DNA of 64,000 nt from an uncultured Alphaproteobacteria bacterium (GCA_902570155.1 CACFXU010000008.1:1088-65087), one strand, 5' to 3'. Shown: positions 13,092 through 64,000, counted from the first letter of the stretch. Notes: generated from the letters alone by a model not told the origin. Program-made: numbers and translations.

Positions 13092-14061
13092 TAGCTACCT
13101 TAGCATCAGTAATATCAATTCCAAATGACCTTTGAAAATATTCCTGTAAGATAGACCTCTCCATTTCATCGCATCTATTTAAAAAAGATAGTTTAAAAGA
13201 ATATTCTATATCATTGAATAGAAGGTAGTTTTCTGCCCAAGTTAATACAGTTCTTGGGCTCATAACAGTTGAAATATCACCGTTAATAAATCCTGATCTC
13301 GAAAGATCTGCAGTAGCTACCATACATTTAACAATGTCTTTGCCATCCTTATTATTAAGTTTATTTATTTTATTTAAAATAATTTTTATCTCTTGATCAT
13401 TACTTAGATAATTCAATGTTGATACTATGTTCCACCTATCCATTTGACCTTGATTTATTTGTTGAGTTCCATGATACAAACCAGATGTATCACCAAGACC
13501 AACGGTGTTTGCTGTAGCAAACAATCTAAAAAATTTGTGGGGTTTAATTACTCTTGATTGATCAAGTAAAGTTAATTTACCTTCTGACTCTAGAATACGC
13601 TGAATAACAAACATTACATCTGGTCTGCCTGCATCATACTCATCAAAGACTAAAGCTACTGGATTTTTGTAAGACCAAGGCAGTATACCATCTTGAAACT
13701 CTGTTACTTGTTTATCATCTTTAAGAATAATAGCATCTTTACCGATTAAATCTATTCTGCTGATATGACTATCTAGATTAATTCTTATGCATGGCCAGTT
13801 AAGTCTGGCAGCTACTTGTTCAATATGAGTAGATTTACCTGTACCATGATATCCTTGTATCAGTACTCTTCTATTAGAAGAAAAACCAGCAAGTATGGAG
13901 ATGGTTGTAGCTGGATCAAAAATATATGTTTGATCTATTTCTGGAACATGTTCAGTTTTTTCTTTAAACTTATAAACCTCAAACTCACAGGAAACCCCAA
14001 ATAATTCTTTAGGATCGATTTTGATACTAGGAGATATTTCTATATTGTTTTTATTAGTCAT
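13078..14061 (-). CDS. cobS: CobS-like MoxR-type AAA+ ATPase
   Basis: 327 aa with Walker [10 protein letters not shown] and Walker B ALVFDEYD. 14-nt overlap with the cobT-like gene. Confidence 0.85.
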
Positions 14062-14701
14062 TTTTAAATTTTTTTAAAAGTATTTTATATGAGTTATTTA
14101 TTTCCTTAAACTTTTCTTCTGCTTTTTTATCGTTACCATTTACATCAGGGTGAAATATTTTCACTAGTTTTTTATAAGTTTTTTTAATTTTATCTAGCGT
14201 TAATGGTAAATCTAGATTAAAACTTGATAAAGCTTTATTTTCATCTTTTGTAAGATTTTCATCAACCAGCTTATTTTTGAAGTAATTATTTTTTTGTTCA
14301 TTTGGATTTAAATCGTTCATTTCTTCGTTAAAAAAATTGTTAATCTGGTCCATAACCTTGTGATAATTCCCTTTCAATGGCCAAGATGGTCTGTTCCAAA
14401 TAATATCTTCTCGCATTGAATTTTCTATTTGATTTACTGACAATCCTTTATAAAAGTCCCATGATTTATTGTATTCTTTTACATGATCTAAACAGAAAAA
14501 ATAATACTGATTTAATAATGTTCGAGATTTTGGAGCTTTAAACTTTCCTTCATTATTACAGTCGTTCTTGTCACATTTCCTAAAATAGGTTTTTTCCCAA
14601 GAAAGACTGTTTTTATTAATATCTATTTTATGCTTACCCACATTTATTATATAGTTTAAAAATAATGAATCGTAAGCAAAGAATTGATAAAATATTATCA
14701 A
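14054..14701 (-). CDS. J-domain protein with N-terminal Cys/His-rich segment
   Basis: C-terminal J domain with HPD (KKTYKKLVKIFHPDVNGND) and an N-terminal CDKNDC...FFCLDH segment. The start is uncertain: the ATG at 14701 overlaps bolA, while an in-frame GTG at 14641 would leave a 23-nt spacer. Confidence 0.72.
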   Translation of the reverse strand: MIIFYQFFAYDSLFLNYIINVGKHKIDINKNSLSWEKTYFRKCDKNDCNNEGKFKAPKSRTLLNQYYFFCLDHVKEYNKSWDFYKGLSVNQIENSMREDIIWNRPSWPLKGNYHKVMDQINNFFNEEMNDLNPNEQKNNYFKNKLVDENLTKDENKALSSFNLDLPLTLDKIKKTYKKLVKIFHPDVNGNDKKAEEKFKEINNSYKILLKKFKND

Positions 14702-36143: not shown

Positions 36144-36218
36144 GGGTGTGTAGCTCAGCGGTAGAGCACTGCCTCGACACGGCAGGGGTCACAGGTTCAA
36201 TCCCTGTCACACCCACCA
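36144..36218 (+). tRNA. tRNA-Val (anticodon GAC), CCA encoded
   Basis: Hand-folded cloverleaf: acceptor GGGTGTG/CACACCC, D stem GCTC/GAGC, anticodon stem CTGCC/GGCAG with loop TCGACAC, variable GGGTC, T arm ACAGG-TTCAATC-CCTGT, then A-CCA. Position 33 reads C rather than the usual U. Confidence 0.85.
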
Positions 36219-48431: not shown

Positions 48432-50179
48432 TGTCATTTTCAAAAAATGATCTTGAATTAATAAAATCAAAAATTCTTCTTTCACAAGAAATAGAAAAAA
48501 AAACAAAAGTCATAAAAAAAGGAAAAGATAGTTGGTGTTGTTGTCCATTTCATGATGAAAAAACTCCATCTTGCAAGATAAATGATGATTTAGGTTCTTA
48601 TTACTGTTTTGGATGTGGAGCCAAAGGAGATATATTTACAATATATACAGAGCTTTATAATTTTTCATTCCCTGAAGCAGTAAAAGAATTAGCTCAAAGA
48701 GTTGGTATTAGACTAGTTGATAATTTTGATTCAAATATGAATAAAAAAAATGATAAAATTTATAAAATTTTAGAAATTTCCACAAAATGGTTCCAAGACA
48801 ATCTAGAAGTAAATAAAGATTGTCAAAGATATTTAAATAAAAGAAATTTGTCAGACGAGACTATAAAATTTTTTAAGTTAGGATTTTCTTCTAATTCAAA
48901 ACAAACTCTTTATCAATTTCTAAAAGAACAAGGTTTTGAAGATAAAGAACTTCTTGAAAGTAATTTAATAAAATTAGATAAAAATAATAAGATACGTGAT
49001 TTTTTTTACAATAGACTTATGTTTCCAATTACAAATGAATATGGAAAAATTGTTGGATTTGGTGGTAGAGTATTAGATAATTCAAATCCTAAATATATTA
49101 ATTCACCTGAAAGTGATTTTTTTAAAAAAAGAAATATTTTGTTTAATCTTTTTAACGCTAAACAAACTATAAGGTCAAAAAAAAATATGCTTATTTGTGA
49201 AGGATATATGGATGTAATAAGTTTGTATGATAAAAATATTAAAACAGCTGTGGCTCCACTTGGCACCTCTTTGACTGATAGCCATCTTCAATTATCATGG
49301 AAATATGTAAACAAACCAACATTGATGTTCGATGGAGACTCTTCAGGATTAAAAGCTTCTTTCAAAAGTGCTATAATGTCTTTACCTTACTTAACTCCTT
49401 CTAAATTATTACAATTTGTCATACTTCCAAATGAATATGATCCTGATACTTTTATCAATGAATTTTCTTTAAAAAAATTTGCAACATATTTAACAACTCC
49501 ACTTTCAATAGTAGATTTTATATTTCAGGAATCTTCAAAATCAATTGATCTAAAAAAATCAGATAATAAGATTATTTTTGACAATTATATTGATGAATTA
49601 GTAAGTAATATAAAAGATACCAAAATAAGATATTTTTACAAAAATGAATTTAAGACTTTGTTTTTTAAAAAATTAAAATCATTTTCAAATACAACAAATA
49701 CAATCAATATTATTCCTACAAAAAACTCTTTGAAAGAAAAACAAATCTTTTCTTTTATAGCTGCATACTTAAATCACGTAAAATTAAGAAATAAAATATA
49801 TTCACTCTTATCTAAATCAGAATTATTAAATAAATATCAGTTAGAATTCTTAAATTTTATTCACAAAACAGATCTTGTAGAGACTGGAATAGATAATATT
49901 AAAACAGATAATTTATCAAAAATATTCTCTGAAATTTATAAAAAATCAACGGATAGCTCTATTTTTCAACTATTTCCTTATGCTAGCAATGGTTATAATG
50001 AAGACAATGCCCTAAAAGAAATTAATGAATCTATAAATAATTTAAATACAAGACTTTCAAATTTGAAAAAAATAAATAAAAGCCTAAATGATATTGATAA
50101 TAATCCATCAACAATGACATGGGATGAATTAAAAAATATTAGTTTTAATCTTCAAGATATTGAAGAGGTATTTGAATAG
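48431..50179 (+). CDS. dnaG: DNA primase
   Basis: 582 aa with a zinc-binding [13 protein letters not shown]...CFGCG motif and a TOPRIM domain (ICEGYMDV...FDGDSSG). Confidence 0.92.
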
Positions 50180-52340
50180 AGTTATGGCTAAAAAGAAAAA
50201 AAAAGTTACTAAGAAAAAAACTGCATTATCTAAAAAAAAGTCATCTGTTAAGAAGAATTTAAAAAAGAAAAACACTAAAGCAAGATCTAAAAAAAATCCT
50301 AAATCTAAAATTCTTAAGAAAACAAAAAAAACTGTTGCAAAAAAAGTTTCTAAAAAATTTGAAGCTAAAAATTTAAAAAAAGATAAACCTGCAAAAATAC
50401 CTAAAGCAATTTCAGGGTTTGAGGATAAAATCAAAGATATTTTTACAAAATTAATCAATAAACATAAAGTTGATGGAATATATACAAAAAAAATAATTGA
50501 GAAAGCAATACCAAAAAAACTTAGACTCGAAGAAAATATAGAAAAGTTTGAAAATTTTATTAAATCTAATGACATAAAAATTTACTCTGAAGAAGAAGCT
50601 CAAGAATTAATTTCATTAGCTAAAGAACAAGCAAATAAATCTGAAGAAGCTTCTGAAGATCAAGAAAAAAAACAAACAGGAAAAACTGACGACCCAGTAA
50701 GATTATATCTGAGAGATATGGGCGCAGTAGAGCTTTTAAGTCGCGAAGGAGAGATTGCAATTGCTAAAAGAATAGAAGCTGGAAGAGAGAAGATGATTGG
50801 AGCTATTTGTGAAAGTCCAATGACAATCAGATCAATAATAAATTGGAAAGATGCAATAAAAGATGGGACAATGTTATTAAGAGACATAGTTGATTTAGAA
50901 GCCACATACGACATGTCAGATATTTCTGATTCAAAACTTGATGATACATTTAAGTTAATTGAAAGTGGAGCAGATGAAAAAAATAATGATAAGAAAAAAG
51001 ATCAATCTGAAGATAATAATGACGAAAATAGTGATGGTGATCAGCAACAAGATGATGATGATGATAGTTTAAACGTATCTTTAGCAGCAATGGAAGAAAA
51101 ACTTAAGCCAAAAGTCTTAAACGATTTTAATGATATAACTAAATTATTCAAAAAGCTTCAAAAACATAGTCAAGAGTTAATAAATGCTGATAAAAAAAAT
51201 GAAAAAAACTACAATACCTTGGAAAAAAAATATTTAAAAATTCAAAAAGAAATGGTTGCCGCCATGAAAGCTGTACATTTTAATTCTACAACAATTGAAG
51301 CACTGATGGAGGCGTTATATGAGTTAAATAAAAAACTTCTTTTGCGTGAAGGTAAAATGCTCCGTATGGCAACGAGTGCTGGAGTTAAAAGAGAAGATTT
51401 TATATCTCAATATTTAAATTTCAACTTTGAAAAAAACTGGATTCAAAGTCTTTTAGCAACAAAAGATAAAAATTGGGAAAAGTTTATTAATAGAAATCAT
51501 ATTGAAATTAATAAAAATATTGAAGAAATCCGAGAAATACAATTAGCTTCTGAGTTACCTTTATCTGAATTTAGAAGAATAGTCGGCACTGTACAACAAG
51601 GTGAAAGATCTGCCAATAGAGCAAAAAAAGAAATGATAGAATCTAATTTAAGATTAGTTATTTCAATAGCAAAAAAATATACCAATAGAGGGCTACAATT
51701 TTTAGATTTAATCCAAGAAGGTAATATAGGTTTGATGAAAGCTGTAGATAAATTTGAATATCGCAGGGGTTACAAATTTTCTACTTACGCAACATGGTGG
51801 ATTAGGCAGGCAATTACAAGGTCCATTGCTGATCAAGCAAGAACAATTAGAATACCAGTTCATATGATAGAAACTATCAATAAAATAGTTAGAACTACAA
51901 GACAAATAATGTCAGAGATTGGAAGAGAGCCAACACCTAATGAATTGGCTGAAAGATTACATATGCCTTTAGATAAAGTTAAAAAAGTTTTAAAAATTGC
52001 TAAAGAACCAATAAGTTTAGAAACTCCAGTTGGTGATGAAGAAGATAGTTCTCTTGGCGATTTTATAGAGGATAAAAATGCACTTATACCTATAGAAGCT
52101 GCTGTAAAAAGTTCATTACGTGACACTACTACCAGAATTCTTTCATCTCTTACTCCTAGAGAAGAGAGAGTTCTTAGAATGAGGTTTGGTATTGGAATGA
52201 ATAGTGATCATACTTTAGAGGAAGTTGGGCAACAATTCAGTGTTACAAGAGAAAGAATAAGGCAAATAGAAGCAAAAGCACTAAGAAAATTAAAACATCC
52301 AACAAGAGCTAGAAAGTTAAAAACATTTCTTGACGAATAA
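50160..52340 (+). CDS. rpoD: RNA polymerase primary sigma factor (sigma-70) with Lys-rich N-terminal extension
   Basis: Regions 1.2-4.2 are clear ([50 protein letters not shown]). The first ATG at 50160 overlaps dnaG by 20 nt; an alternative ATG lies at 50184, just after the dnaG stop. Confidence 0.95.
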
Positions 52341-53167
52341 TGAAGCTAACGCTTCTTGGAACTGGGTGCCCTTCAATTGATTATAAACGGTGTGGATCAG
52401 CAAACTTAATTTGTTCAAAAAAAACTAAAATTCTAATTGATTGTGGTTCTGGTGTAACACAAAGATTAAACCAAAGTGGACATTCTTCTGCAGAGATTGA
52501 TGCATTATTACTTACACATTTGCACACTGACCATGTAATAGATTTATACCAATTAGTTATATCATCCTGGCATTCGGATAGAGATTCAATTTGGAAAATA
52601 TATGGTCCTAAAGGAACAAAAAAATTTGTTGATCAAATTTTTCTAGCTTGGAAAAATGAACGAAATTTAAGAATTTCTTATGAAAAAAGAAAATCTATAA
52701 AGGCTCTAAAATATAAAGTTTATGAATTTGATAAAACAGGTTCAATAAATATAAAAGATATAAAGTTTAAATATTTTGAAGTAGATCACAAGCCAGTACC
52801 ATATTCTTATGGTTTTTCATTTTATAATAATAAAAAGAAATTAACTATAAGTGGTGATACAAGACCATGCGAAAGTTTAATGCAAAATGCTCAGAACTCA
52901 GATGTTTTACTTCATGAAGTTTTTATAGAATATGAAATGAATAAAACATCAAAGCTAAGAACTAAAAAAACATTACATAATGTTAAAGAATATCACACTC
53001 CAAGTAATCTTGTTGGTAAAGTAGCTAAACTAACAAACTGTAAAAAACTTGTTTTAACACATTTTGTTCCAACAAGATTTAATGTTTCAAAATTAAAGAA
53101 AATTGTAAAAAAAGATTTTGGCAAAGATCCAATAATTGGAGAAGATTTATTAACAGTAAATATCTAA
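52340..53167 (+). CDS. MBL-fold metallo-hydrolase (RNase Z/ElaC-like)
   Basis: 275 aa with an N-terminal LLGTG...ILIDCGSG segment and the HxHxDH motif (THLHTDHVIDL). The ATG shares a base with the rpoD TAA (TAATG). Confidence 0.68.
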   Translation: MKLTLLGTGCPSIDYKRCGSANLICSKKTKILIDCGSGVTQRLNQSGHSSAEIDALLLTHLHTDHVIDLYQLVISSWHSDRDSIWKIYGPKGTKKFVDQIFLAWKNERNLRISYEKRKSIKALKYKVYEFDKTGSINIKDIKFKYFEVDHKPVPYSYGFSFYNNKKKLTISGDTRPCESLMQNAQNSDVLLHEVFIEYEMNKTSKLRTKKTLHNVKEYHTPSNLVGKVAKLTNCKKLVLTHFVPTRFNVSKLKKIVKKDFGKDPIIGEDLLTVNI

Positions 53168-53991
53168 CCAATCTTATTTAAAAATTTATCAAACTCTTCA
53201 TCTTTTATTTCAACAATATTTGATTTGGTTGGAAATTTTTTATTATTTACATCCTTAATAAAACTTTTAAGTCCTTGTATCGTGTCATCTAATAGCTTCT
53301 CATAGGACTTATTTGTATCCTTAAATACTTTTGCGTGACGAGGTACTCTATCAGTATTAGTACCTATAACATCTTGAATAAATAAAAACTCAACATCACA
53401 TCTAGGACCACTTCCCATAGACAATGTTAATAAATTTACTTTTTTTGTAATAATTTCTGCAACTCTATCTGGCACACATTCTACCTCAAGACCAATTGCA
53501 CCTGCTTGATCATATGCCAAAGCATCTTGATAAACTTTGTAGGCAGATATAGCATCTTTTCCTACTGCTTTGAAACCACCAGTCCATGTACTTTTATAAG
53601 GTATTAAGCCTATATGACTGACGGCTGGCAATCCTTCATTTCGAAGAGCTTCTATATATTTTGGACTATTACCGCAATAAACTGCATCGGCCCCATTTTC
53701 TCTTGCAATAAGAGCAGCATCAATTGCTTTTTCTGTAGAAGATAATTGACCAAGACCATAAATCATAAATGTATTTGGCGCTGCGTCTCGAATATCTTTA
53801 ATATGCGCATCCCTAAACCATCTATTTGTTGGCACACCTGTTCTTAATGTATCTTTTTTAAATGAAACAATTTGAATATCTATACCAGCTTGTTCAGCTG
53901 CATATGCTTCTAAAGCATTTGTTACATATAGTTCTGTTAATTTAACTTTTCCTTTTTTATCAAATAAATCTTTAACTGTAAGTTTTGACAT
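53164..53991 (-). CDS. PanB-like (ketopantoate hydroxymethyltransferase fold, ICL/PEP-mutase superfamily) protein of unknown function
   Basis: 275 aa. Alignable by eye to PanB (SHIGLIPYKSTWTGGFKAVGK; LEVECVP; LSMGSGPRCD), but the PanB metal/active-site motifs GDSLG, ADLPF and KIEGG are not recognisable. Confidence 0.68.
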   Translation of the reverse strand: MSKLTVKDLFDKKGKVKLTELYVTNALEAYAAEQAGIDIQIVSFKKDTLRTGVPTNRWFRDAHIKDIRDAAPNTFMIYGLGQLSSTEKAIDAALIARENGADAVYCGNSPKYIEALRNEGLPAVSHIGLIPYKSTWTGGFKAVGKDAISAYKVYQDALAYDQAGAIGLEVECVPDRVAEIITKKVNLLTLSMGSGPRCDVEFLFIQDVIGTNTDRVPRHAKVFKDTNKSYEKLLDDTIQGLKSFIKDVNNKKFPTKSNIVEIKDEEFDKFLNKIG

Positions 53992-55352
53992 TAATGATAT
54001 TTGGGTAAATATTTCCCGTGTGCTTCAATTAACTTATCAACCATTGCATATATTTCATCGATTGATAAATTTGCTCCAGTAAGGGGATCAAGCATTGCAG
54101 CATGATAGATGTGCTCTTTTTTATTTGTTAATGCAGCTTCAGCAGTCAATATTTGAACATTTATATTAGTTCTCATTAAAGCTGCTAAATGCTCTGGTAA
54201 GCGACCAGTTTTTTGTGGTTGATTACCTTTTGAATTAATTAAACAAGGAACTTCGACACAACAATTTGATGGTAAATTATCAATATATCCATCATTCATC
54301 ACATTACCATTAATTGTCACTCCATTGTTGTTTGCTACAGCATCCATTATGTATGATGCATATTCTTTTCCTCTTTTTAGAGGTTGATTATGTATGGGTG
54401 TCATATCTTTTTCCAAGTCATCCCAAAGCTTGATATTATTTTCACATCTATCAATGTATTCTTCTATGGGAATTTTATATTGATCAATTAAATCTTGTCT
54501 GTTCTGTTTTATAAACCAAGGAACATACTCAGCAAAATGTTCGCTAGACTCTGTAACAAAATAACCAAATCGTCTTAAAATTTCGTATCTTACTTTTTCA
54601 TGAAGTACTTTATCTGATTCACTGTCTTTACCTATACTTCTAGTTGATGTTATTTTATCACTGACAATATCATCAGCTAATTTTTTTAATTTTGGATAAA
54701 GATCCTCTCCACCATTGCCATTCTTTTTTGTAAACTTTTTATAGAAAGCCATGTGGTTAATTCCAGCACAGAGATAATCAATATCCTCAATTTTTTCATT
54801 TAAATCTCTCGCAAGCATTTCTGCAGTTCCTTGTACAGAATGACAAAGTCCTATTGATTTAATTCCAGGGCAAGCATTATTTATTGCTATCATGTTTGAA
54901 CACATTGGGTTCACATATTGTAACCATAAAGAATTTGGACAAAGATCCATTATGTCTTTACCAATATCTACTAAAACGGGAATCGTTCTTAGGCCTCTCA
55001 TAATTCCACCAATACCAAGGGTATCAGCTATTGTCTGTTTTAACCCAAATTGATTTGGAATATCAAAATCGATTACTGTTGATGGTTTATAACCACCTAC
55101 CTGTATAGTTGACTGAACAAAATCAGAACCTGCTAAAGCTTCTTTTCTATTAGTGTATGATTTTATATTTGGGGATGCATTTAACTTTTTTGCAATTACA
55201 TTTAATAATTCATGAGAAATTTTTAATCTTTTTTCATCAATATCTACCAGTGCAATATCCATTTTTTTAAAATCATCAATGAACATTAAATCAGTAAAAA
55301 TATTTTTGGTAAATACTGCGCTACCAGCACCAATGATTGTGAGTTTAGTCAA
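53991..55352 (-). CDS. Glycoside hydrolase family 4 (NAD+/Mn2+-dependent) paralog 1
   Basis: 453 aa with an N-terminal Rossmann segment KLTIIGAGSAVF, YVNPM, the Mn-ligand context IGLCHSVQG, and AGINHMAFY. Confidence 0.85.
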   Translation of the reverse strand: MTKLTIIGAGSAVFTKNIFTDLMFIDDFKKMDIALVDIDEKRLKISHELLNVIAKKLNASPNIKSYTNRKEALAGSDFVQSTIQVGGYKPSTVIDFDIPNQFGLKQTIADTLGIGGIMRGLRTIPVLVDIGKDIMDLCPNSLWLQYVNPMCSNMIAINNACPGIKSIGLCHSVQGTAEMLARDLNEKIEDIDYLCAGINHMAFYKKFTKKNGNGGEDLYPKLKKLADDIVSDKITSTRSIGKDSESDKVLHEKVRYEILRRFGYFVTESSEHFAEYVPWFIKQNRQDLIDQYKIPIEEYIDRCENNIKLWDDLEKDMTPIHNQPLKRGKEYASYIMDAVANNNGVTINGNVMNDGYIDNLPSNCCVEVPCLINSKGNQPQKTGRLPEHLAALMRTNINVQILTAEAALTNKKEHIYHAAMLDPLTGANLSIDEIYAMVDKLIEAHGKYLPKYH

Positions 55353-56085
55353 TTTTATACTCCATAATTGAATTATGATTTGCTACTTTTAACTGGTTAT
55401 AAGAAGCATGTCCAATTTCTTTATAAGGATTATTGGATTTAGTATTAAAGCACACTATTAATGTTCTTCTAGAATTTTGTGATTTATTTGCATCAGAAGA
55501 GTGCAATAGATTTGCATGAAAGAATAATGCATCTCCTGGTTCTGCTTCAATATAAACAGACTCATGTCTTTTTTCTAATTCTCTTATTCTTTCATTATCA
55601 GCTGTTTGTTCAGGTGTGTCTGATCGTTCATGGCTAATTCTTCCAACACGATGAGAACCCTTTAATACTTTAAGGCAACCATTTTCTTTATTTGCTTTAT
55701 CTAACATTATAAAACATGATGCCATATCTGGATAAAGACAAGCATTGTGATACCAATAACCATAATCTTGATGCCAATCAAATCCACCATCGCCTGGATT
55801 TTTCCAAATAATTTTAGAATGATAATGATAAACTTCATCATTTAAGAATATTTCCATTGGTTTGACTATTCTTTCATTAGTAGAAAATTTTCCAAATAAA
55901 TCTTCTGAAGGATGATTCCACATTGTCATTGTTAATTTTCCAGTTGAAGTATTAGTCTCTCTTGCACTTTCTTCTTTATCTTTTCTAATGGCTATATATT
56001 GATTTAATTTATTGATTTCTTCATTAGAAAAGAGTTTTTTCTTTAGGACAAAGCCATTTGAGATGAATTCCTTTATGTCACTCAT
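55345..56085 (-). CDS. PhyH-family Fe(II)/2-oxoglutarate dioxygenase
   Basis: FDWHQDYGYW (HxD), a distal His in FFHANLLHSS, and Arg in SRRTLIV. I prefer the ATG at 56085 (MSDIKEF...) over the TTG at 56127 used in the ORF track. Confidence 0.8.
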   Translation of the reverse strand: MSDIKEFISNGFVLKKKLFSNEEINKLNQYIAIRKDKEESARETNTSTGKLTMTMWNHPSEDLFGKFSTNERIVKPMEIFLNDEVYHYHSKIIWKNPGDGGFDWHQDYGYWYHNACLYPDMASCFIMLDKANKENGCLKVLKGSHRVGRISHERSDTPEQTADNERIRELEKRHESVYIEAEPGDALFFHANLLHSSDANKSQNSRRTLIVCFNTKSNNPYKEIGHASYNQLKVANHNSIMEYKID

Positions 56086-56157
56086 ATAAATAAACTTTAA
56101 TTTCTTTGATAAATTAAATATTGTCAATAAATATTAGGGAGTATAGGATATATAAGT

Positions 56158-57642
56158 ATGAAAGTTAGTTTTATTGGAGCTGGAAGTATAGGATTTACTC
56201 AAACATTAGTAAGAGATCTGCTAAAGGTTCCTGAATTTCATGATACAAATTTTTTTTTTCACGATATTTCTGAAAAAAATTTAGATTTTGTTTCAAAACT
56301 TATCCAAAAAGATATTGATGCTAATAATCTTCCTGCAACTATTGAACAATCAACCGATAGAAAAAAAGCATTAGAGGGAGCAAAATATATAATTAATTGT
56401 ACACGCATTGGAGGACTAGAAGCATTTGAGCATGATATTAATATTCCTCTTCAATATGGTGTAGATCAGTGTGTAGGGGACACCATTTGCGCTGGAGGAA
56501 TTCTATATGGTCAAAGAAATATTCCCCAAACCTTAAATTTTTGTAAAGATATAAAATCTTATTCGGATACAAATGCTTTGTTTTTGAATTATTCAAATCC
56601 AATGGCCATGAACACTTGGGCAGCAATATCAGAAGCAAAAGTAAATACAGTTGGACTATGTCACGGTGTTCAAGGTGGCGCAAAACTAATCTCTAAAGCA
56701 TTGGGATCTGAAAACTCAAAAGATCTTGAATATATGTGTAGCGGAATTAATCATATGACCTGGTACATAGATCTGAAATTCAAAGGAAAAAAAGTATCAA
56801 AAGAAGAACTTATAGATGCATTGGAAAGACATCCAGAAATTTCTAAACAAGAAAAAGTAAGAATTGATATTCTAAAAAGATTTGGTTTATTTTCTACTGA
56901 AAGTAATGGCCATTTAAGTGAGTATCTTCCATGGTATAGAAAAAGAGTTGAGGATATTCCTAAATGGATAGATTTGTCCAATTGGATACATGGCGAAACG
57001 GGAGGATATTTAAGAGTTACATCAGAGAAAAGAAATTGGTTTGAAGAAGACTTTGAAAAATTTTTGAGTGAGTCGGGTATCGATTTAAATAATCATAAAA
57101 GATCTTCTGAGCATGGTAGTTATATAATTGAGTCAATTGAAACAAATAGACCTTATCGTGGTCATTTTAATGTAGTTAATAATGGTACTATAACAAATTT
57201 ACCAGATGACTGTGTTATTGAAAGTACTGGAACAGTTGATAAAGATGGAATTAAAATGATTAAAGGTGTTGAGCTTCCAATGGCCTGTGCATCACTTTGT
57301 AGAACATCGATAGATGTTCAGAGAATGGCAGTCAAAGCTGCAATAGACGGAGATCTAAATTTATTAAAATTAGCAGTTTTGCAAGATCCATTAGTTAGTG
57401 CAGTTTGTGCACCTGATGAAGTTTGGTCTATGGTAGATGAAATGATTGTAGCTCAATCTAAATGGCTTCCTCAATATCAAAACGAAATTGAACCAGCTCT
57501 AGAGAGAATTAAAAATTCTAATGTAAAAAAGAAAAATTTTAAAGGTGCTGCAAGAATGAAAACTAGATCTCCTGAAGAACTAAAAAATGATGAAGCATCT
57601 TCTTTACTTGTGGAAGCACAAGCATTCGAATTTGATGCTTAA
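56158..57642 (+). CDS. Glycoside hydrolase family 4 (NAD+/Mn2+-dependent) paralog 2, with C-terminal extension
   Basis: 494 aa with KVSFIGAGSIGF, NYSNPMAM, VGLCHGVQG and SGINHMTWY. An extra charged tail of about 50 aa follows the GH4 C-domain. AGGA lies 9 nt upstream of the ATG. Confidence 0.85.
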   Translation: MKVSFIGAGSIGFTQTLVRDLLKVPEFHDTNFFFHDISEKNLDFVSKLIQKDIDANNLPATIEQSTDRKKALEGAKYIINCTRIGGLEAFEHDINIPLQYGVDQCVGDTICAGGILYGQRNIPQTLNFCKDIKSYSDTNALFLNYSNPMAMNTWAAISEAKVNTVGLCHGVQGGAKLISKALGSENSKDLEYMCSGINHMTWYIDLKFKGKKVSKEELIDALERHPEISKQEKVRIDILKRFGLFSTESNGHLSEYLPWYRKRVEDIPKWIDLSNWIHGETGGYLRVTSEKRNWFEEDFEKFLSESGIDLNNHKRSSEHGSYIIESIETNRPYRGHFNVVNNGTITNLPDDCVIESTGTVDKDGIKMIKGVELPMACASLCRTSIDVQRMAVKAAIDGDLNLLKLAVLQDPLVSAVCAPDEVWSMVDEMIVAQSKWLPQYQNEIEPALERIKNSNVKKKNFKGAARMKTRSPEELKNDEASSLLVEAQAFEFDA

Positions 57643-57645
57643 GCA

Positions 57646-59175
57646 ATGAAAGAAATAAAAAATGTCGTAATTTTAGGTGGAGGCACTGCAGGATGGCTAG
57701 CTGCATATATATTAAGTGACTTTTTTTATTCTAACAAACTTAATACAAATGTTAAAATAATAGAGTCTTCTAAAATACCAACAATTGGTGTTGGAGAGGG
57801 GACTACCAGCATATTTTATGAATTTTTAAAAAAATATAATTTAGATGAATCTGATTTTTTGAAAGAAACAAAAGCTACATTAAAATTTGGAATAGTACAT
57901 AAAGACTGGAAAGAATTAGGGTATACGTATTATGGACCTATAGATGACCCTCAATTAATTGCTCCAAAAAATAAACCAGAAAATTTCGAGTATTTAAAAG
58001 CATATGCTGTCGCTGCTGGAAGACCGGTTTCTGAAATTCATTTGCATACAATGCTTATGCAAAATAAAAAAGTACCTTATACTTTTAAAAATAATAATTT
58101 AGAACTAATAAGTCCATTTTATTATGCATATCATTTTGATAATTCTCAAGTTGCAAGCTATTTAAATAAAAGATCTAAAAATATTGAGATTATTGATGAT
58201 ATTTATACATCATCAACACAAAATGTAGATGGATCAATTAAATCTCTATGTTTTGAAAGTGGTTTAGAATTGGATGTTGATTTAGTTATTGATTGTAGTG
58301 GTTTTAAAAAATTGATTATTGGAGATGTATTCAAAACCAAATGGATCTCTTATCAAGATAATCTTCCTGTAAATAGAGCGATGCCATTTTTTTTAGACAT
58401 AAAAGAAGAAAACTACATTAATTATACTTTAGCTTGGGCCCAAAAGTATGGATGGATGTGGCAAATTCCTACACAAGAAAGAATTGGTGCTGGTTATGTT
58501 TATTGTGATCAATTTATCTCACCTGATCAAGCACAAGAAGAAATAGAAAAAGTTCTTGGTCACAAAATTGAACCAAGACGAGACATTAAGTTTAACAGTG
58601 GTAGGTTAGAAAAATATTGGGTTAAAAATTGTTTAGCTATCGGTTTATCATCTGGGTTCCTCGAACCCTTAGAAGCTACTTCTATTCATAGTACTTTGAT
58701 TCAAATTATTTTATTTGCAACTGAATATCTTAAGAAAGAAATGGACTTTAATAATGAAGAATTAATATCTAATTTTAACAATCGAATTGGACGACAATTT
58801 GATGATTTTAAAACTTTTTTAAATATGCACTATGTTTCCAAAAGAAGAGATTCAAAATTTTGGCAATACGTTGCAGATGAATGTATAAGCGAAGAAACAA
58901 AAAAATTTATTTCTTTATGGCAAGATGAACTTCCAAGTCTTGATCATTTTGATGATTATCTCTCTGGCCTTCCTCATGTACAATCACAGTTATACTACCC
59001 AGTCGTTGATGGTCTTGGTCTATTAAGTAAGGAATCCGCAAGAGAACAAATGAGCAAATATGACTTACGCTCAACATCAAGAAAATATTACAATGATTTT
59101 TCTGAGAAATTTAACGAAATAATCAAGGATTCTCTTACTCACAGTCAATATATTAATCTTTCAGTGAATTCTTAG
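57646..59175 (+). CDS. Flavin-dependent halogenase homolog (tryptophan-halogenase family)
   Basis: 509 aa with GGGTAGW (GxGxxG), IGVGEGT, TKATLKF (aligns to the PrnA catalytic-Lys segment), WMWQIP (WxWxIP) and FLEPLEATSI (catalytic-Glu segment). Confidence 0.8.
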   Translation: MKEIKNVVILGGGTAGWLAAYILSDFFYSNKLNTNVKIIESSKIPTIGVGEGTTSIFYEFLKKYNLDESDFLKETKATLKFGIVHKDWKELGYTYYGPIDDPQLIAPKNKPENFEYLKAYAVAAGRPVSEIHLHTMLMQNKKVPYTFKNNNLELISPFYYAYHFDNSQVASYLNKRSKNIEIIDDIYTSSTQNVDGSIKSLCFESGLELDVDLVIDCSGFKKLIIGDVFKTKWISYQDNLPVNRAMPFFLDIKEENYINYTLAWAQKYGWMWQIPTQERIGAGYVYCDQFISPDQAQEEIEKVLGHKIEPRRDIKFNSGRLEKYWVKNCLAIGLSSGFLEPLEATSIHSTLIQIILFATEYLKKEMDFNNEELISNFNNRIGRQFDDFKTFLNMHYVSKRRDSKFWQYVADECISEETKKFISLWQDELPSLDHFDDYLSGLPHVQSQLYYPVVDGLGLLSKESAREQMSKYDLRSTSRKYYNDFSEKFNEIIKDSLTHSQYINLSVNS

Positions 59176-59262
59176 ATTAACTGAATAACATTTATAATTG
59201 TTATTGATTTTGAATTAAAAAAACATTTTAATTTAGTTAAAATTATTCAATGGGAGGATAAG

Positions 59263-61290
59263 ATGGGTATTGAAACCAAATTTACTTTCAAGAGTAAGGC
59301 AGCAAGTTTACTTGTAGGTGTCAGCATGGTTGCTATGACTTCTGGTGCTAGTGCTCTTGAAACTCTACCACCTGATAAAAGTATGTCAGGTATAGAAGTT
59401 GAGTTAGTTGGAAGAGATGATTTATACTCTTACAAAAGTTGTGATAGTTATAATGAAGCTCCTTTAACTGCAGCTTATGTTGAAGCTGGAAAGCTACCAC
59501 CAGTAGCTGAGAGACTTCCAAAAACACCAATGATGATGTCAAAAGCTCAAATGGTTGATGGAATTGGTGATTATGGCGGAACATTTCGTCATGTTATTGG
59601 AGGAAGACCTGAAGGTTGGAACTGGATGGCTGGACAACATCAAGGTTGGGGTGGCATTAGCATGCAGTTAATGCAATCATTAACAAGACTAGGTCCACTA
59701 TGGCAAGTTAAACCTGAAGAAGCTTTACCTCTTCCAAACCTAGCAACTGACTGGGAGTTTAATAGCGATCGCACTACTTTAACTATGAATTTAGTTGAAG
59801 GTGTAAAATGGTCTGATGGAGATCCATTTGATACTGAAGATATTGATTTTTGGTGGAACGATAATGTTCAAAATGCAAATGTAAACTCGAGGCTTCCAAA
59901 GGATGCTCTTGGTGCAGGAACGACAGTTGATATTTTAGGACCATATTCGTTTAGGTTTAATTTTGATTCTCCAAAAGGTAATGCTGTTCTATCACAGCTT
60001 GCGCATATGGGAGGTGCTCCAGGGCCTTCTCACATTTTAAAACCACATCACCCAGATTATAATAGTGATGCAACTTACGATACATATACAATGGCTTTAC
60101 CACCTGATGAGGTGCCTATAGCAACACTTGGAGCTTATGTTCCAGTTGCTCATAAAATTGACGAACTGGTGGTGATGAAAAGAAATCCTTATTACTGGAA
60201 AGTTGATGAAGAATGTAATCAACTTCCATATTACCATGAAACGATTTATAAATTAACCACATGGGATGATAGAACTACGCAAGCTCTAGCAGGAACTGGT
60301 GATTATTCTAATATGGAAAATCCTGGTAACTACGTTGAAGCCTTAAAGCAAAATAAAGATCCTAACTCGCCTGTTAGATCAGTCTTTGGTTCTAGATCTT
60401 TGACATGGAAATTATATGTAAATCTTTCCTCTGAATTTGGAGCTCAAGATGATTATGATAGAGAGTTAAGAAAACTTTTCAGAAACTTGGAGTTTAGAAA
60501 AGCACTTTCTCATGCAATGGATAGAGACACTATGGGTCAATCTGTTGCGAGAGGTCCTTTCTTCCATCCTCATGCTGGAGGATTTTCTGCAGGATCTCCT
60601 TTTCATCGCTTTGAGGATTCTATTTATTATGGATACAATGTTGATGGTGCCAATTCAATCTTAGATGGTTTAGGTCTTATTGATAGTGATGGAAACGGTA
60701 TTAGAAATTTTCCTAATGGAGGAGAAGATATAGCGTTGGACATCCTTTTCAGTAATGAAAGATCAACTGATATTAAAATTGGGGATAGTATAGTTCCAAT
60801 GTTTGAAGCGGTAGGATTAAAACCTATATTAAAACCTTCAAACGATACGGCAGCAATTACTGATGCGGGAAATTGGAATTTATATATTAATAGACACAAT
60901 TGGCTTGTTGTAACGAAAAACATGGCTGATGAGTTACCAATAACTCCTGAAAATCCTGTTCAACATAAAAGTAATGAAGGTGATTTACTTCCATTTGAAA
61001 AAACTTTAGCTAATTTAGGTAACGACATTCTTGCTACTAATGATTTGAAAGTTGTTGCAGAAAAAGCTTACGAAATTCAAAAGGTAAGTACTGAAAATGT
61101 ATATTCAATAGGTTTAATACAAACACCTGCTGCACTTTTAATTAACAAAAGGATAAAGAATAATCATCCAGGCACTCCAGTATATATGTACGAATGGGGT
61201 GAAGATGCAATTTTTAGGGAAAGACTTTATACCCCTAAAGCTGATCAAATAGATGAGTTCTTACCTGGTGTTTTGGCTGAATATAAATAA
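59263..61290 (+). CDS. ABC transporter substrate-binding protein, family 5 (peptide/opine/alpha-galactoside type), 675 aa
   Basis: Signal peptide with an ASA-L cleavage-like site (LLVGVSMVAMTSGASALE) and a family-5 core (VKWSDGDPFDTEDIDFWW). Strong SD GGGAGGA at 59252-59258. Confidence 0.85.
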   Translation: MGIETKFTFKSKAASLLVGVSMVAMTSGASALETLPPDKSMSGIEVELVGRDDLYSYKSCDSYNEAPLTAAYVEAGKLPPVAERLPKTPMMMSKAQMVDGIGDYGGTFRHVIGGRPEGWNWMAGQHQGWGGISMQLMQSLTRLGPLWQVKPEEALPLPNLATDWEFNSDRTTLTMNLVEGVKWSDGDPFDTEDIDFWWNDNVQNANVNSRLPKDALGAGTTVDILGPYSFRFNFDSPKGNAVLSQLAHMGGAPGPSHILKPHHPDYNSDATYDTYTMALPPDEVPIATLGAYVPVAHKIDELVVMKRNPYYWKVDEECNQLPYYHETIYKLTTWDDRTTQALAGTGDYSNMENPGNYVEALKQNKDPNSPVRSVFGSRSLTWKLYVNLSSEFGAQDDYDRELRKLFRNLEFRKALSHAMDRDTMGQSVARGPFFHPHAGGFSAGSPFHRFEDSIYYGYNVDGANSILDGLGLIDSDGNGIRNFPNGGEDIALDILFSNERSTDIKIGDSIVPMFEAVGLKPILKPSNDTAAITDAGNWNLYINRHNWLVVTKNMADELPITPENPVQHKSNEGDLLPFEKTLANLGNDILATNDLKVVAEKAYEIQKVSTENVYSIGLIQTPAALLINKRIKNNHPGTPVYMYEWGEDAIFRERLYTPKADQIDEFLPGVLAEYK

Positions 61291-61302
61291 ATAAATCAAT
61301 AC

Positions 61303-61332
61303 AATGGCCCATTTTTCAATGGGCCATTTTTA
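61303..61332 (+). terminator. Intrinsic terminator/attenuator hairpin between the SBP and permease genes
   Basis: AATGGCCCAT (61303-61312) pairs with ATGGGCCATT (61319-61328) around loop TTTTCA, followed by a T-run to 61331. It is the only GC-rich hairpin I found in an intergenic gap. Confidence 0.7.
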
Positions 61333-61338
61333 CAATTT

Positions 61339-62364
61339 ATGGCTTTTTTATTTTTTTTATTAAAACGAATTATTGCAACTATTCCTCTATTAATTGCTAT
61401 AACTCTTGTTGCTTTTCTTCTTGTTCAGGCAATGCCCGGTGATTATGCAACTCAATGGAAAGCTCAAACAATGTCAATGGGAGGTGTCAGTGAAGAGGAT
61501 GCTGAGGCTCAAGCTGAAGCTTTAAGAGTTAGATTAGGTTTAGATAAACCACTTTACATTCAATATTTTAATTGGGTAAAAAATATCACTCTTTATTGGG
61601 ATTTAGGAGAATCATTTATTCAACAGAGATCAGTTAATGAAGCAATAGGAGATAGAGTTCCACGAACATTATTATTAGCTTTTATATGTTACTTTAATGC
61701 CGTAACTATTGGAATATTAGCTGGCGTCTATGCTGCTACACATCAATATCAACTAGGCGATCAACTTGCTACAGTCTTTACATTTTTAGCTTTTTCAATT
61801 CCTAAGTTTATTGTAGCGTTAGTTATATTATACTTCTGGGCTATTAAATTTCATTCACCATATTATGGCTCAATATTTTCACAAGAATATGTTTTACAAG
61901 AGGGATGGTGGAGTCTTGCAAAAACATGGGATTTCTTGCTCCATACCTGGCCAATTATTGCAGTTGGAAGTTTTGTAGGAGCAGGATATCAAATGAGAAT
62001 GATGCGAGGTAATTTATTAGATGTTTTAAAAATGCAATTTATAGAAACCGCAAGGGCTAAAGGGTTAAAGGAAAGTAAGATTATATGGAAACATGGTGTT
62101 CCAAACGCTTTACATCCAATAATCATGAATCAAGGTAGAAGCGTTGGCTATTTAATTGAAGGAGAGATTGAAGTAGCAATTGTATTAGCAATACCAACTA
62201 TTGGACCATTGATTTTATCATCCGTTACCACAATGGATATATATGTTGCATCTTCAATATTTTTGATTTTGTCTCTCGTATTAGTAATTGGTAATTTTAT
62301 TGCAGATATAATATTGGCATTACTTGATCCTCGTATTAGAGATATGTCCGGAGGTGAGGCTTAA
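61339..62364 (+). CDS. ABC transporter permease (DppB/OppB type)
   Basis: 341 aa, about 6 TM, with the EAA-loop region FIETARAKGLKESKIIWKHGVPNALHP. Confidence 0.9.
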   Translation: MAFLFFLLKRIIATIPLLIAITLVAFLLVQAMPGDYATQWKAQTMSMGGVSEEDAEAQAEALRVRLGLDKPLYIQYFNWVKNITLYWDLGESFIQQRSVNEAIGDRVPRTLLLAFICYFNAVTIGILAGVYAATHQYQLGDQLATVFTFLAFSIPKFIVALVILYFWAIKFHSPYYGSIFSQEYVLQEGWWSLAKTWDFLLHTWPIIAVGSFVGAGYQMRMMRGNLLDVLKMQFIETARAKGLKESKIIWKHGVPNALHPIIMNQGRSVGYLIEGEIEVAIVLAIPTIGPLILSSVTTMDIYVASSIFLILSLVLVIGNFIADIILALLDPRIRDMSGGEA

Positions 62365-63491
62365 TGACTTCCAAAAATAAAAATGGATCTCTTAATGCTG
62401 AGGCACAAAAATTTTCAAATATAAATTCCCATTGGCACCTTTCATATTTAAGATTAAGAAAAAATCGTTACGGAATGTTTGGTTTATATGGTGTGTTGTT
62501 TATTTTTTTTATTGCTATTTTTGCAGAATTTTTATCACCTCATAGTTATAAGAAGACTGTTCAGGATGAATTATATAATCCACCACAATTAATTCGATTT
62601 ATAGATTCTGAAGGTAATTTTCATTTAAGACCATTTGTATTTAAACTTATTGAAGAAATGGACATGGAAACTTTTGAATTCTCTTACTCTAATTCAGATG
62701 AAATGATACCTATTTATTTTTTTATTCAGGGTGATGAATATTCTATTTTTGGTTTTAAGACTAAGCTTCGGTTATTTGGCAATAACGAAGGTAATATTCA
62801 CTTATTGGGTACTGATAATATGGGGAGAGATATTCTTTCAAGAATGTTTGTCGGAACACAAATTACTATGCTCTTTGCTTTACTTGCAGTTTCAGCATCA
62901 TTGGTTATTGGATTAATGGTAGGTATAAGCTCAGGATATTTTGGAGGAACGTATGATTTAATAGCGCAAAGAGTGACAGAATTTGCATTATCATTTCCAT
63001 CCTATCCATTATATTTTGCGTTAGTAGCTCTCTTGCCAAAAAGAGCCGATGAGACGACAGTGTTTGTACTATTTGCTGGAATAATTGTTTTATTAAATTG
63101 GGCATCAATTGCTAGAGAGATTAGAGGTAAAACTTTTTTAGTAAGAAACCTAGAATTTGTTAGAGCAGCAAGAGCTTTAGGTGCATCTAGATCAAGAATA
63201 ATGATTCAACATATATTTCCAAATACCTTATCTCACGTAATTGTCTGGACATCATTTTGTATTCCTCTAATTATTTTAGTTGAAACTTTTTTAAGTTTCA
63301 TCGGAGTAGGTGTTCAGCATCCTATGGTTTCATGGGGTGTAATGTTAAATCAGGCTTTAGATATACAGAGCTTTGCATATGCTCCCTGGATGATTTCTCC
63401 AGTTGGAATGATTATATTGACTGTTTTAGCTTTTAATGCTTTTGGAGATGGAATAAGGGACGCGGTAGATCCATATGCAGTCACAAAATAA
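62364..63491 (+). CDS. ABC transporter permease (DppC/OppC type)
   Basis: 375 aa with the EAA-loop region FVRAARALGASRSRIMIQHIFPNTLSH. The ATG overlaps the upstream stop (TAATG). Confidence 0.9.
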   Translation: MTSKNKNGSLNAEAQKFSNINSHWHLSYLRLRKNRYGMFGLYGVLFIFFIAIFAEFLSPHSYKKTVQDELYNPPQLIRFIDSEGNFHLRPFVFKLIEEMDMETFEFSYSNSDEMIPIYFFIQGDEYSIFGFKTKLRLFGNNEGNIHLLGTDNMGRDILSRMFVGTQITMLFALLAVSASLVIGLMVGISSGYFGGTYDLIAQRVTEFALSFPSYPLYFALVALLPKRADETTVFVLFAGIIVLLNWASIAREIRGKTFLVRNLEFVRAARALGASRSRIMIQHIFPNTLSHVIVWTSFCIPLIILVETFLSFIGVGVQHPMVSWGVMLNQALDIQSFAYAPWMISPVGMIILTVLAFNAFGDGIRDAVDPYAVTK

Positions 63492-64000
63492 TCAGAAATT
63501 ATTAGATCTGAAAAATGCTGAAGTAAAATTCAGTGTAGAGGGAGGAATTGTCAATGCAGTAAATGATATATCTTTTGACATAATGAAAGGTGAAACCCTT
63601 GCTGTTGTTGGTGAGTCAGGTTCAGGAAAATCAGTCACAGCTAGAACTATAATGAAAATGCTACCTAAGAATTCATCAATTGGGTCAAATTTCAAGATTG
63701 AGTTTAAAGATATAGATATTACAAATTTAACTCAGGAACAGATGAGACAAATCAGAGGTGATACTATTAGTATGATATTTCAAGAGCCTCTTACAAGTTT
63801 AAATCCTCTCCATAGGATTGGTAGTCAATTGATAGAGGTATTACGAGAACACAATAAAATTGATAAAATTACTGCAAAAGAAAGAGCCCTTGAATTATTA
63901 AAAGAAGTACAAATTCCTCAGCCAGAAGAAAGATTAAATCAATATCCGCATCAGTTATCAGGGGGTCAAAGACAAAGAGTTATGATTGCAATGGCTATTG
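63475..64000 (+). CDS. ABC transporter ATP-binding protein (DppD/OppD type), N-terminal 175 aa (runs off window); not in the supplied ORF track
   Basis: Hand translation from the ATG at 63475 reads MQSQNNQKLLDLKNAEVKFSVEGG... with Walker A GESGSGKS, Q-loop MIFQEP and signature LSGGQRQRV. No stop before the window end. 17-nt overlap with the permease gene. Confidence 0.9.
   Translation, partial: MQSQNNQKLLDLKNAEVKFSVEGGIVNAVNDISFDIMKGETLAVVGESGSGKSVTARTIMKMLPKNSSIGSNFKIEFKDIDITNLTQEQMRQIRGDTISMIFQEPLTSLNPLHRIGSQLIEVLREHNKIDKITAKERALELLKEVQIPQPEERLNQYPHQLSGGQRQRVMIAMAI

Follow-up and report, generated by a model that had tools for sequence, protein, structure and literature searches.

A probable SAR11 version of the mel/agp alpha-galactoside system with a halogenase-family gene and a PanB-like gene

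Gene content of the locus

A stretch of 64,000 nucleotides (nt) from an uncultured Alphaproteobacteria bacterium (GCA_902570155.1, CACFXU010000008.1:1088-65087) was analyzed, and is referred to as the window. The locus under study spans 53164-64000, with the ATPase gene running off the window end. Two divergent operons encode an ATP-binding cassette (ABC) importer with a family-5 substrate-binding protein (SBP), two glycoside hydrolases of family 4 (GH4), a PhyH-type Fe(II)/2-oxoglutarate (2OG) dioxygenase, a flavin-dependent halogenase homolog, and a PanB-like protein (Table 1). The locus probably (with a rough probability of 0.7) represents, in Pelagibacteraceae (SAR11), the mel/agp alpha-galactoside system of Alphaproteobacteria. 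Close homologs carry Pelagibacteraceae names in their sources. The protein encoded at 62364-63491 (PermC) is present unchanged on 23 public contigs, including single-cell genomes deposited as 'uncultured Alphaproteobacteria'.

The gene layout given in the initial annotation (coordinates, strands, and sizes of the open reading frames, ORFs) was confirmed in full by an ORF map, each of its family assignments by Pfam and NCBIfam, and its gene junctions (the 8-nt and 1-nt TAATG overlaps, the 3-nt spacer, and the 30-72 bp divergent spacer) by direct reading of the sequence. For the dioxygenase gene, the likely start is the ATG at 56085 (246 aa), as called in public assemblies. The ATPase gene is complete in matching contig L001, where it encodes a 542-aa fused double ATPase, and a full-length gene is also present in L002-L004.

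Table 1. Features of the locus and their positions in the 64,000-nt window.
Feature	Position	Strand	Details
PanB-like gene	53164-53991	minus	275 aa; last in leftward operon; 1-nt TAATG overlap with GH4 paralog 1
GH4 paralog 1	53991-55352	minus	453 aa; Pfam Glyco_hydro_4 and 4C domains
PhyH-type Fe(II)/2OG dioxygenase	55345-56127 (TTG start)	minus	first in leftward operon; 8-nt overlap with GH4 paralog 1
Divergent intergenic spacer	56086-56157	none	AT-rich, 72 bp (30 bp if PhyH starts at TTG); direct sequence reading
GH4 paralog 2	56158-57642	plus	494 aa
Trp_halogenase-family gene	57646-59175	plus	509 aa; 3 nt behind GH4 paralog 2
SBP_bac_5 binding-protein gene	59263-61290	plus	675 aa; N-terminal signal peptide
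Perfect 11-bp inverted repeat AATGGCCCATT-GAAA-AATGGGCCATT	61303-61328	none	terminator-type scan; 4-nt loop; within 48-bp SBP-permease gap
ABC permease, DppB/OppB type	61339-62364	plus	341 aa; Pfam BPD_transp_1 and BPD_transp_1_N
ABC permease, DppC/OppC type	62364-63491	plus	375 aa; Pfam OppC_N and BPD_transp_1
ABC ATPase, N-terminal part	63475-64000 (runs off window)	plus	NCBIfam OppD/YejF/GsiA-type matches

Binding protein and GH4 enzymes

The SBP was aligned over residues 24-659 with the 'periplasmic alpha-galactoside-binding protein' MelB of A. fabrum (PDB 6EPY) at E=1.3e-167. The next-best solved structures were about 120 orders of magnitude weaker, and the peptide/nickel binder families (Opp/Dpp/Nik) matched weakly, at 3e-17 for the best. 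Assignment of the SBP as a MelB/AgpA-type periplasmic alpha-galactoside binder, an ortholog rather than a peptide or nickel binder, is well supported by these alignments. It has 42-44% identity to rhizobial AgpA-type genes. Against the rhizobial mel/agp system its identity is about 42-48%, so ligand preference may differ.

Both GH4 proteins exceeded the cut-off (486 bits) of the alpha-galactosidase family NF011657, paralog 1 with 596 bits and paralog 2 with 552 bits; they share 34% identity. The motifs IGAGS, GLCHS, and GINH of paralog 1 align to the GH4 structures 3FEF and 5C3M, and FIGAGS, GLCHG, and GINH were read directly from the sequence of paralog 2. The NAD-binding GxGS, the Mn2+-binding Cys in GLC(H), and the His in G(I/L)NH are thereby kept in both. 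The annotated mel/agp locus on an Ensifer canadensis plasmid has the order AraC-GH4-SBP5-permease-permease-fused ATPase-GH4, and in a neighbor-joining tree each SAR11 GH4 grouped with one of the two Ensifer mel/agp GH4s. Paralog 1 is the predicted ortholog of the rhizobial GH4 downstream of the agp ATPase gene, and paralog 2 that of the GH4 adjoining the AraC regulator (the melA position).

The initial annotation had proposed an importer with GH4 hydrolases for a small glycoside and had likened the layout to that of Sinorhizobium melA-agpABCD. The MelB match, the GH4 cut-offs, and the GH4 motifs support the former as an alpha-galactoside backbone, and the comparison proved correct, given the MelB homology and the two-clade GH4 match. 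Its description of the system as undescribed fails for this backbone, which is of an already known kind. None of the outcomes that it had named as speaking against it was found.

Halogenase-family gene

The 509-aa protein was matched by Pfam Trp_halogenase at E=7e-106 and by tryptophan halogenases in the PDB down to E=1e-63. Aligned to solved halogenases, with PrnA K79 as the reference for the catalytic Lys and PrnA E346 for the Glu, it carries GGGTAGW (GxGxxG), K80 in ATLKFGI, GWMWQIP (WxWxIP), and EPLEATS. GxGxxG, Lys80, WxWxIP, and EPLE were invariant across 22 orthologs. The AlphaFold2 (AF2) model was superposed on Thal, PyrH, and PrnA at template modeling (TM) scores of 0.8-0.86.

To survey the gene, one genome per species was scanned with the ortholog alignment, and the retrieved loci were then searched by tblastn with the window proteins. 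At halogenase identities of at least 40%, 24 of 26 genome-scan loci carried GH4 and 21 of 26 a MelB-type SBP gene; the two lacking GH4 are contigs of only 2.3 and 4.8 kb. At identities of 36% or below, a GH4 or SBP5 gene was found in 0 of 54 loci. The loci with halogenases of at least 40% identity came from Pelagibacterales, in Hyphomicrobiales (Devosia, Kaistia, Bauldia, and Aestuariivirga), and in Rhodobacterales (Tabrizicola, Histidinibacterium, Marivivens, Rhodobacter, Cypionkella, and others). Across these three orders the halogenases are about 45% identical and are sited within GH4/ABC operons, most commonly in the order SBP-permease-permease-ATPase-GH4-halogenase-GH4. On a Sulfitobacter mediterraneus plasmid the genes of a GH4-halogenase-GH4 series overlap by 4 nt, and in Devosia rhodophyticola the halogenase gene stands between two GH4 genes, with AraC regulators flanking.

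The halogenase-family gene is a conserved member of a mel/agp operon variant in marine and aquatic Alphaproteobacteria, and its catalytic apparatus is under purifying selection within a catabolic operon. No report linking a halogenase to GH4 or agp genes was found in the literature; searches pairing SAR11 with alpha-galactosidase, floridoside, GH4, or halogenase, and tryptophan halogenase with galactosidase, gave nothing on such a link.

Distant homologs (30-36% identity), often multicopy, adjoin genes for a TonB-dependent receptor, SapC, Cupin_8/JmjC, LacI, and GH20; in L067, L074, L036, and similar loci, 2-5 tandem halogenase paralogs stand with TonB receptor, SapC, Cupin_8/JmjC, DUF6445, LacI, and GH20 genes. 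Iyer et al. (2010; PMC2938197), who described the TonB-receptor/SapC/JmjC/halogenase neighborhood, linked it to a halogenated metabolite of unknown identity. The loci of the L067, L074, and L036 kind look more like glycan uptake than the siderophore synthesis proposed in 2010. No TonB receptor, SapC, or Cupin_8/JmjC gene was found near the halogenase gene in the window or in L001-L032.

PanB-like protein

The PanB-like protein was matched by Pfam PF02548 at 132 bits and fell below the NCBIfam cut-offs, with 107.5 against 207.55 for TIGR00222 (panB) and 116.6 against 272 for NF001452. In place of the Mg2+ and ketopantoate ligands of PanB (Asp45, Ser46, Asp84, Lys112, and Glu114, E. coli numbering), the protein has F, K, G, Y, and G, respectively; the equivalents of His136 and Glu181 are retained. 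The E. coli reference sequence was entered manually in its N-terminal part; alignment to four canonical PanBs of the library gave identical replacements. The subfamily has new conserved motifs (VYC, ExE, and PRHAK). The AF2 model (predicted local distance difference test, pLDDT, 87) had PanBs as all of its top 28 Foldseek matches (TM 0.65-0.72). The (beta/alpha)8 fold of PanB is kept, its Mg2+ and substrate ligands are lost, and the protein is not PanB.

A full-library search gave 63 PanB-like representatives at E<=1e-30. As the PanB-like alignment (A3) was too divergent for metagenome search patterns, a narrower one (A4) was used. In Rhizobiales the PanB-like gene is fourth, after mocD-mocE-mocF; on R. 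phaseoli pRphaR744c (L181, 8986-9798) it is annotated '3-methyl-2-oxobutanoate hydroxymethyltransferase', and further rhizobial loci are L158, L163-L169, and L180 (10648-11410). Copies 80-90% identical to the query occur on 186 plasmids. On R. leguminosarum RCAM2802 p_4 the copy is matched in two different reading frames, and is therefore either a pseudogene or affected by a sequencing error. The mocDEF genes are required for rhizopine catabolism (PMC10107442). No gene for MocD (FA_desaturase family), MocE (Rieske), or MocF (reductase) is present in the window. Bahar and colleagues reportedly proposed in 1998 that MocDEF is an O-demethylating ferredoxin-oxygenase complex.

A second marine operon, which includes a PanB-like gene, was recovered many times on low-GC metagenome contigs (L100-L139, e.g., L120, 2952-12000), with the order SBP_bac_1-permease-permease-MocD-like-(MocE-like Rieske or flavodoxin)-Aldedh-PanB-like-(LacI)-rhizopine-like sugar SBP-ATPase-permease. 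The last position is taken by GH4 or by ThuA-Gfo/Idh/MocA, which look like two interchangeable 3-keto-glycoside routes. On some contigs PhyH adjoins the PanB-like gene.

One relative, the library protein P0361 (542 aa), is a head-to-tail duplication of the whole PanB-like domain with nearly identical halves, either a tandem fusion or an assembly artefact. P0241 was considered as a PanC-PhyH fusion hinting at pantothenate metabolism, and was rejected as an artefact of an over-long ORF call with a weak Pantoate_ligase match, on a contig with the ordinary GH4 | PhyH-GH4 locus.

Dioxygenases

The window PhyH was matched by PF05721 at E=1e-32, and its WHQDY and LLHSS align to 7DT0 as an intact HxD...H triad. 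Its nearest solved structures were 7DT0/7DZZ, the leucine hydroxylase GriE (5NCH), and EctD, which places it closest to the free-amino-acid and ectoine hydroxylases (GriE and EctD). A second PhyH (PhyH2), downstream of the window in L001, belongs to a different family. Its nearest solved structure is 4XC9, which we take to be a HygX-type sugar-acting oxygenase. An apparent 'HSG' motif raised the possibility that PhyH2 is a SyrB2-like Fe/2OG halogenase; this was rejected, as alignment to TlxJ gave an HHE (HxE) triad, which marks a hydroxylase type. In Rhodobacterales the PhyH2 family recurs within or close to the module, with a homolog of 57% identity inside the Rhodobacteraceae operon L029 and near L021. 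A 75%-identical paralog heads the leftward operon of one SAR11 variant (type 3, below).

Strain variability and flanking genes

The initial annotation had asked whether the locus is strain-variable. The site is variable, with at least four configurations among close SAR11 relatives, and lies between carAB-yqeY-dnaG-rpoD-MBL and MFS-fba-PhyH2-SBP1. Type 1 (the window, L001-L006, L009, and L026) has the window arrangement followed by a 66-aa ORF and a Gfo/Idh/MocA gene. In type 2 (L008, L010, L091, and L092) the halogenase gene is behind the ATPase gene, and the 66-aa ORF and the Gfo gene (Gfo1) were not detected. Type 3 (L094-L096) is type-2-like, with a leftward operon of PhyH2-like-PhyH-MocD-like-GH4-PanB-like, and is the only SAR11 variant with a MocD-like gene, for a di-iron oxygenase (about 35% identical). 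In the empty site (L093), PhyH stands alone between MBL and MFS.

The flanks are conserved (carAB, 94-98% nucleotide identity; SBP1 and Perm608, 100% protein identity). Between types 1 and 2, identity runs from about 90% for the PanB-like protein through about 78% for GH4 paralog 1 and PhyH and about 65% for GH4 paralog 2 and the halogenase to 42-57% for the ABC genes. The type-1 SBP and permeases have their nearer relatives in a Marivivens/Paracoccaceae group (51-56%), not in SAR11 type 2, which suggests, from a neighbor-joining tree only, that the type-1 transporter genes are a cassette replacement.

These comparisons did not bear out the idea that the nine genes travel as a unit. In three orders the halogenase gene accompanies GH4 and ABC genes, the module includes PhyH and the PanB-like gene in SAR11 alone, the gene order differs among SAR11 variants, and PhyH stays in L093 while the remaining genes are absent.

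Locus genes had a GC fraction of 0.321 compared with 0.269 in the 49 other window ORFs (p=3e-4), a K+N+I fraction of 0.216 compared with 0.303 (p=1e-4), and a third-position GC (GC3) of 0.178 compared with 0.154 (p=0.012). The compositional shift described in the initial annotation is real for GC and K+N+I and is smaller than its hand counts gave (per-gene GC 0.29-0.37, not 0.35-0.43). As the GC rise falls mostly at codon positions 1 and 2, the shift reflects amino-acid composition. GC as evidence of a foreign origin was rejected on this ground and on the slight GC3 difference; the compositional case for recent transfer is weak.

No regulator gene was found in the window or in L001-L010, and the statement of the initial annotation that the visible part of the locus holds none was upheld. 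In other orders, AraC-type regulators are part of the orthologous loci, as in Devosia, Ensifer, Sulfitobacter, and Paracoccaceae. In the divergent spacer, a promoter scan was at chance level (63 sites vs. 56 +/- 7.7 in shuffles), and a terminator scan and an Rfam search gave nothing above chance. The inverted repeat at 61303-61328 is likely an intercistronic hairpin. SBP-distal hairpins occur in other ABC operons, and by analogy with these it may serve a similar function.

Past the window end, L001 carries the rest of the ATPase gene, the 66-aa ORF (12733-12933), which overlaps the stop codon of that gene, and a 388-aa Gfo/Idh/MocA oxidoreductase (13070-14236) with weak similarity to IolG and levoglucosan dehydrogenase. 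The ORF and the oxidoreductase are 97-99% identical among type-1 loci and were undetected in type 2. An MFS transporter follows, and further on a class II fructose-bisphosphate aldolase (equivalog-level match), PhyH2, and sugar-type ABC transporters with Gfo and aldo-keto-reductase genes.

Upstream, nucleotide identity dips locally in two housekeeping genes: at window positions 49000-52500 (the 3' half of dnaG through rpoD) it is 79-85% to genomes with 94-98% identity in carAB (45-48 kb), two of which match the locus at 95-99%. The rpoD ORF overlaps the dnaG end and is very Lys-rich in its first ~90 aa. A tRNA at 36144-36215 was the sole Rfam match in the window; across the 64 kb, Rfam gave no riboswitch and no other structured RNA.

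Proposed mechanism

The MelB/AgpA-type periplasmic binding protein would capture small alpha-galactosides, the two permeases and the fused double ATPase would import them, and the two cytoplasmic GH4s would cleave them by NAD+/Mn2+ oxidation-elimination. Capture, ABC import, and GH4 hydrolysis of alpha-galactosides are well supported as predictions from homology and conserved context. For the halogenase-like, dioxygenase, and PanB-fold genes, we agree with the initial annotation that no role in glycoside catabolism is known.

Because the PanB-like relatives are the fourth gene of rhizobial mocDEF operons, we infer that the O2-dependent enzymes act on decorations or aglycones of imported glycosides; the oxygenases would hydroxylate or O-demethylate, for example, a methylated galactoside or a galactosyl-cyclitol. 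The PanB-like protein would then handle the released one-carbon (C1) unit or the oxidized product. Its hydroxymethyl-transfer (tetrahydrofolate) ancestry, the loss of the keto-acid site, and its company of oxygenase and aldehyde dehydrogenase genes point by analogy to a place downstream of oxidative demethylation or hydroxylation, possibly in C1 capture.

MelB prefers galactinol. With this preference, the weakly IolG-like Gfo downstream, and the link to MocD, a galactosyl-cyclitol or methylated-galactoside substrate would unite several observations, and is offered as a hypothesis of low probability. The same caution applies to the wider proposal, speculative as it is, that the accessory gene products act as an oxidative layer that tailors decorated alpha-galactosides (for example, O-methylated galactosides or galactosyl-cyclitols from phototrophs). 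The PanB-derived subfamily would then be a new enzyme class beside MocDEF or PhyH, acting for example in formaldehyde capture on tetrahydrofolate, and the halogenase substrate would be catabolic and glycoside-related. Structure models confirmed the folds and gave nothing on substrates.

Several points weigh against the locus being a mel/agp system with such an oxidative layer. The window has no MocD-like gene and no aldehyde dehydrogenase. The C1-capture role is suggested only by fold ancestry and gene neighborhood. The demethylase role of MocDEF is the one reportedly proposed by Bahar and colleagues; PMC10107442 gives only the requirement of mocDEF for rhizopine catabolism. PhyH persists in the empty-site strain, so it may be unrelated to galactosides. 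GH4 and family-5 SBP specificities are not readable from sequence alone. A flavin reductase partner for the halogenase was not found at the locus, and no genome-wide search was made.

Alternative explanations

A single dedicated pathway for one unusual glycoside, encoded by all nine genes and previously undescribed, is considered unlikely. The genes are translationally coupled and the same set occurs in three SAR11 arrangements, as such a pathway would have it. Yet the backbone is orthologous to a characterized system, PhyH remains where all else is absent (L093), no halogenase/GH4 locus outside SAR11 has PhyH or the PanB-like gene, and the PanB-like subfamily also accompanies unrelated transporters.

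A mosaic of unrelated functions in a compact genome, in which an ordinary alpha-galactoside module is the chance neighbor of a halogenase for secondary metabolites, a hydroxylase for small molecules, and a pantothenate gene, is considered quite unlikely. Dense packing with frequent short overlaps is usual in SAR11 genomes, the empty site shows PhyH to be independent of the module, and annotation pipelines name the PanB-like gene panB. However, that protein is without the catalytic residues of PanB and does not reach the NCBIfam cut-offs, and its gene is absent from the empty-site strain; in three orders the halogenase gene, at about 45% identity, recurs within GH4/ABC operons, and no NRPS, PKS, or other biosynthetic genes are nearby.

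The halogenase and the 2OG dioxygenase might instead make a halogenated, hydroxylated amino-acid-derived metabolite, siderophore-like or a signal, as predicted by Iyer et al. (2010; PMC2938197) for the TonB-receptor neighborhood. The intact halogenase motifs, the distant homologs in loci with TonB-dependent receptor, SapC, and Cupin_8 genes, and the pairing of halogenase and dioxygenase that recurs in the SAR11 locus agree with this. It is nevertheless very unlikely: the locus has no TonB receptor, SapC, JmjC, or peptide-synthesis genes, and the halogenase orthogroup of at least 40% identity is tied exclusively to GH4 and the importer. The TonB-receptor loci themselves carry the carbohydrate genes LacI and GH20, so nutrient uptake fits them better than siderophore synthesis.

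A peptide or nickel importer (Opp/Dpp/Nik) unrelated to the GH4s is extremely improbable, as the membership of its components in Pfam SBP_bac_5, OppC_N, and OppD-type families is outweighed by the SBP match to MelB (E=1e-167, against 3e-17 for the best peptide/nickel binder family) and by the conserved linkage of SBP and GH4.

Significance

SAR11, the ocean's most abundant heterotroph, is regarded as a user of few carbohydrates. In these bacteria, a locus for alpha-galactoside import and hydrolysis that is widespread and varies among strains points to phototroph-derived galactosides as a niche-defining carbon source. Many metagenome clusters consist of the accessory proteins and close relatives of these. 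We know of no native substrates for the orphan flavin-dependent halogenases. The GH4-halogenase-GH4 operon gives them a concrete, testable context and, if a catabolic role were true, would provide the first physiological role for a large orphan group of proteobacterial 'tryptophan halogenases' in nutrient-uptake loci. The 'PanB' found on hundreds of rhizobial plasmids is a catalytically rewired fourth mocDEF gene product, which corrects an annotation error. It suggests a missing step in rhizopine or methyl-cyclitol catabolism, possibly one that links O-demethylation to folate C1 metabolism.

Comparison with known systems

Except that it lacks the AraC regulator, the core of importer and two GH4s belongs to the known mel/agp kind. 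What is new is a halogenase gene conserved as an insertion, a PanB subfamily with a rewired catalytic site, and a SAR11 site that occurs in four states. With the rhizobial mel/agp loci (S. meliloti agpT-melA-agpABCD plus a second GH4; A. fabrum mel with MelB, 6EPY), the SAR11 locus shares the large family-5 SBP, homologous over its full length, the two permeases, the fused double ATPase, and two GH4 paralogs in the same two clades. It differs in having no AraC regulator (AgpT), in its two divergent operons, in the inserted halogenase-family gene, and in the coupling of PhyH and the PanB-like gene to one GH4.

The halogenase has the fold and motifs of the orphan BrvH/Xcc4156 type (6FRL, 6Y1W) and of the tryptophan halogenases PrnA, RebH, PyrH, and Thal, but its gene belongs to an operon for sugar catabolism, not to a biosynthetic cluster, and has no reductase nearby. 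The TonB-receptor/SapC/JmjC neighborhood (PMC2938197) likewise pairs a halogenase and an Fe/2OG oxygenase beside an uptake system, and has carbohydrate genes (LacI, GH20) in its loci. In the SAR11 locus the uptake system is an ABC importer, SapC is absent, the oxygenase is of the PhyH rather than the JmjC type, and the halogenases are 30-36% identical to those of that neighborhood.

The PanB-like protein shares its fold and Pfam family with PanB (1M3U, 1OY0, 3VAV), whereas its gene is found with oxygenases and sugar transporters, unlike PanB with its pantothenate genes. In the rhizopine mocDEF operons of Rhizobium and Sinorhizobium a PanB-like gene stands directly behind mocF, and SAR11 type 3 has MocD-like, GH4, and PanB-like genes in one operon. 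Compared with the mocDEF operons, the PhyH dioxygenase occupies the oxygenase position in the window.

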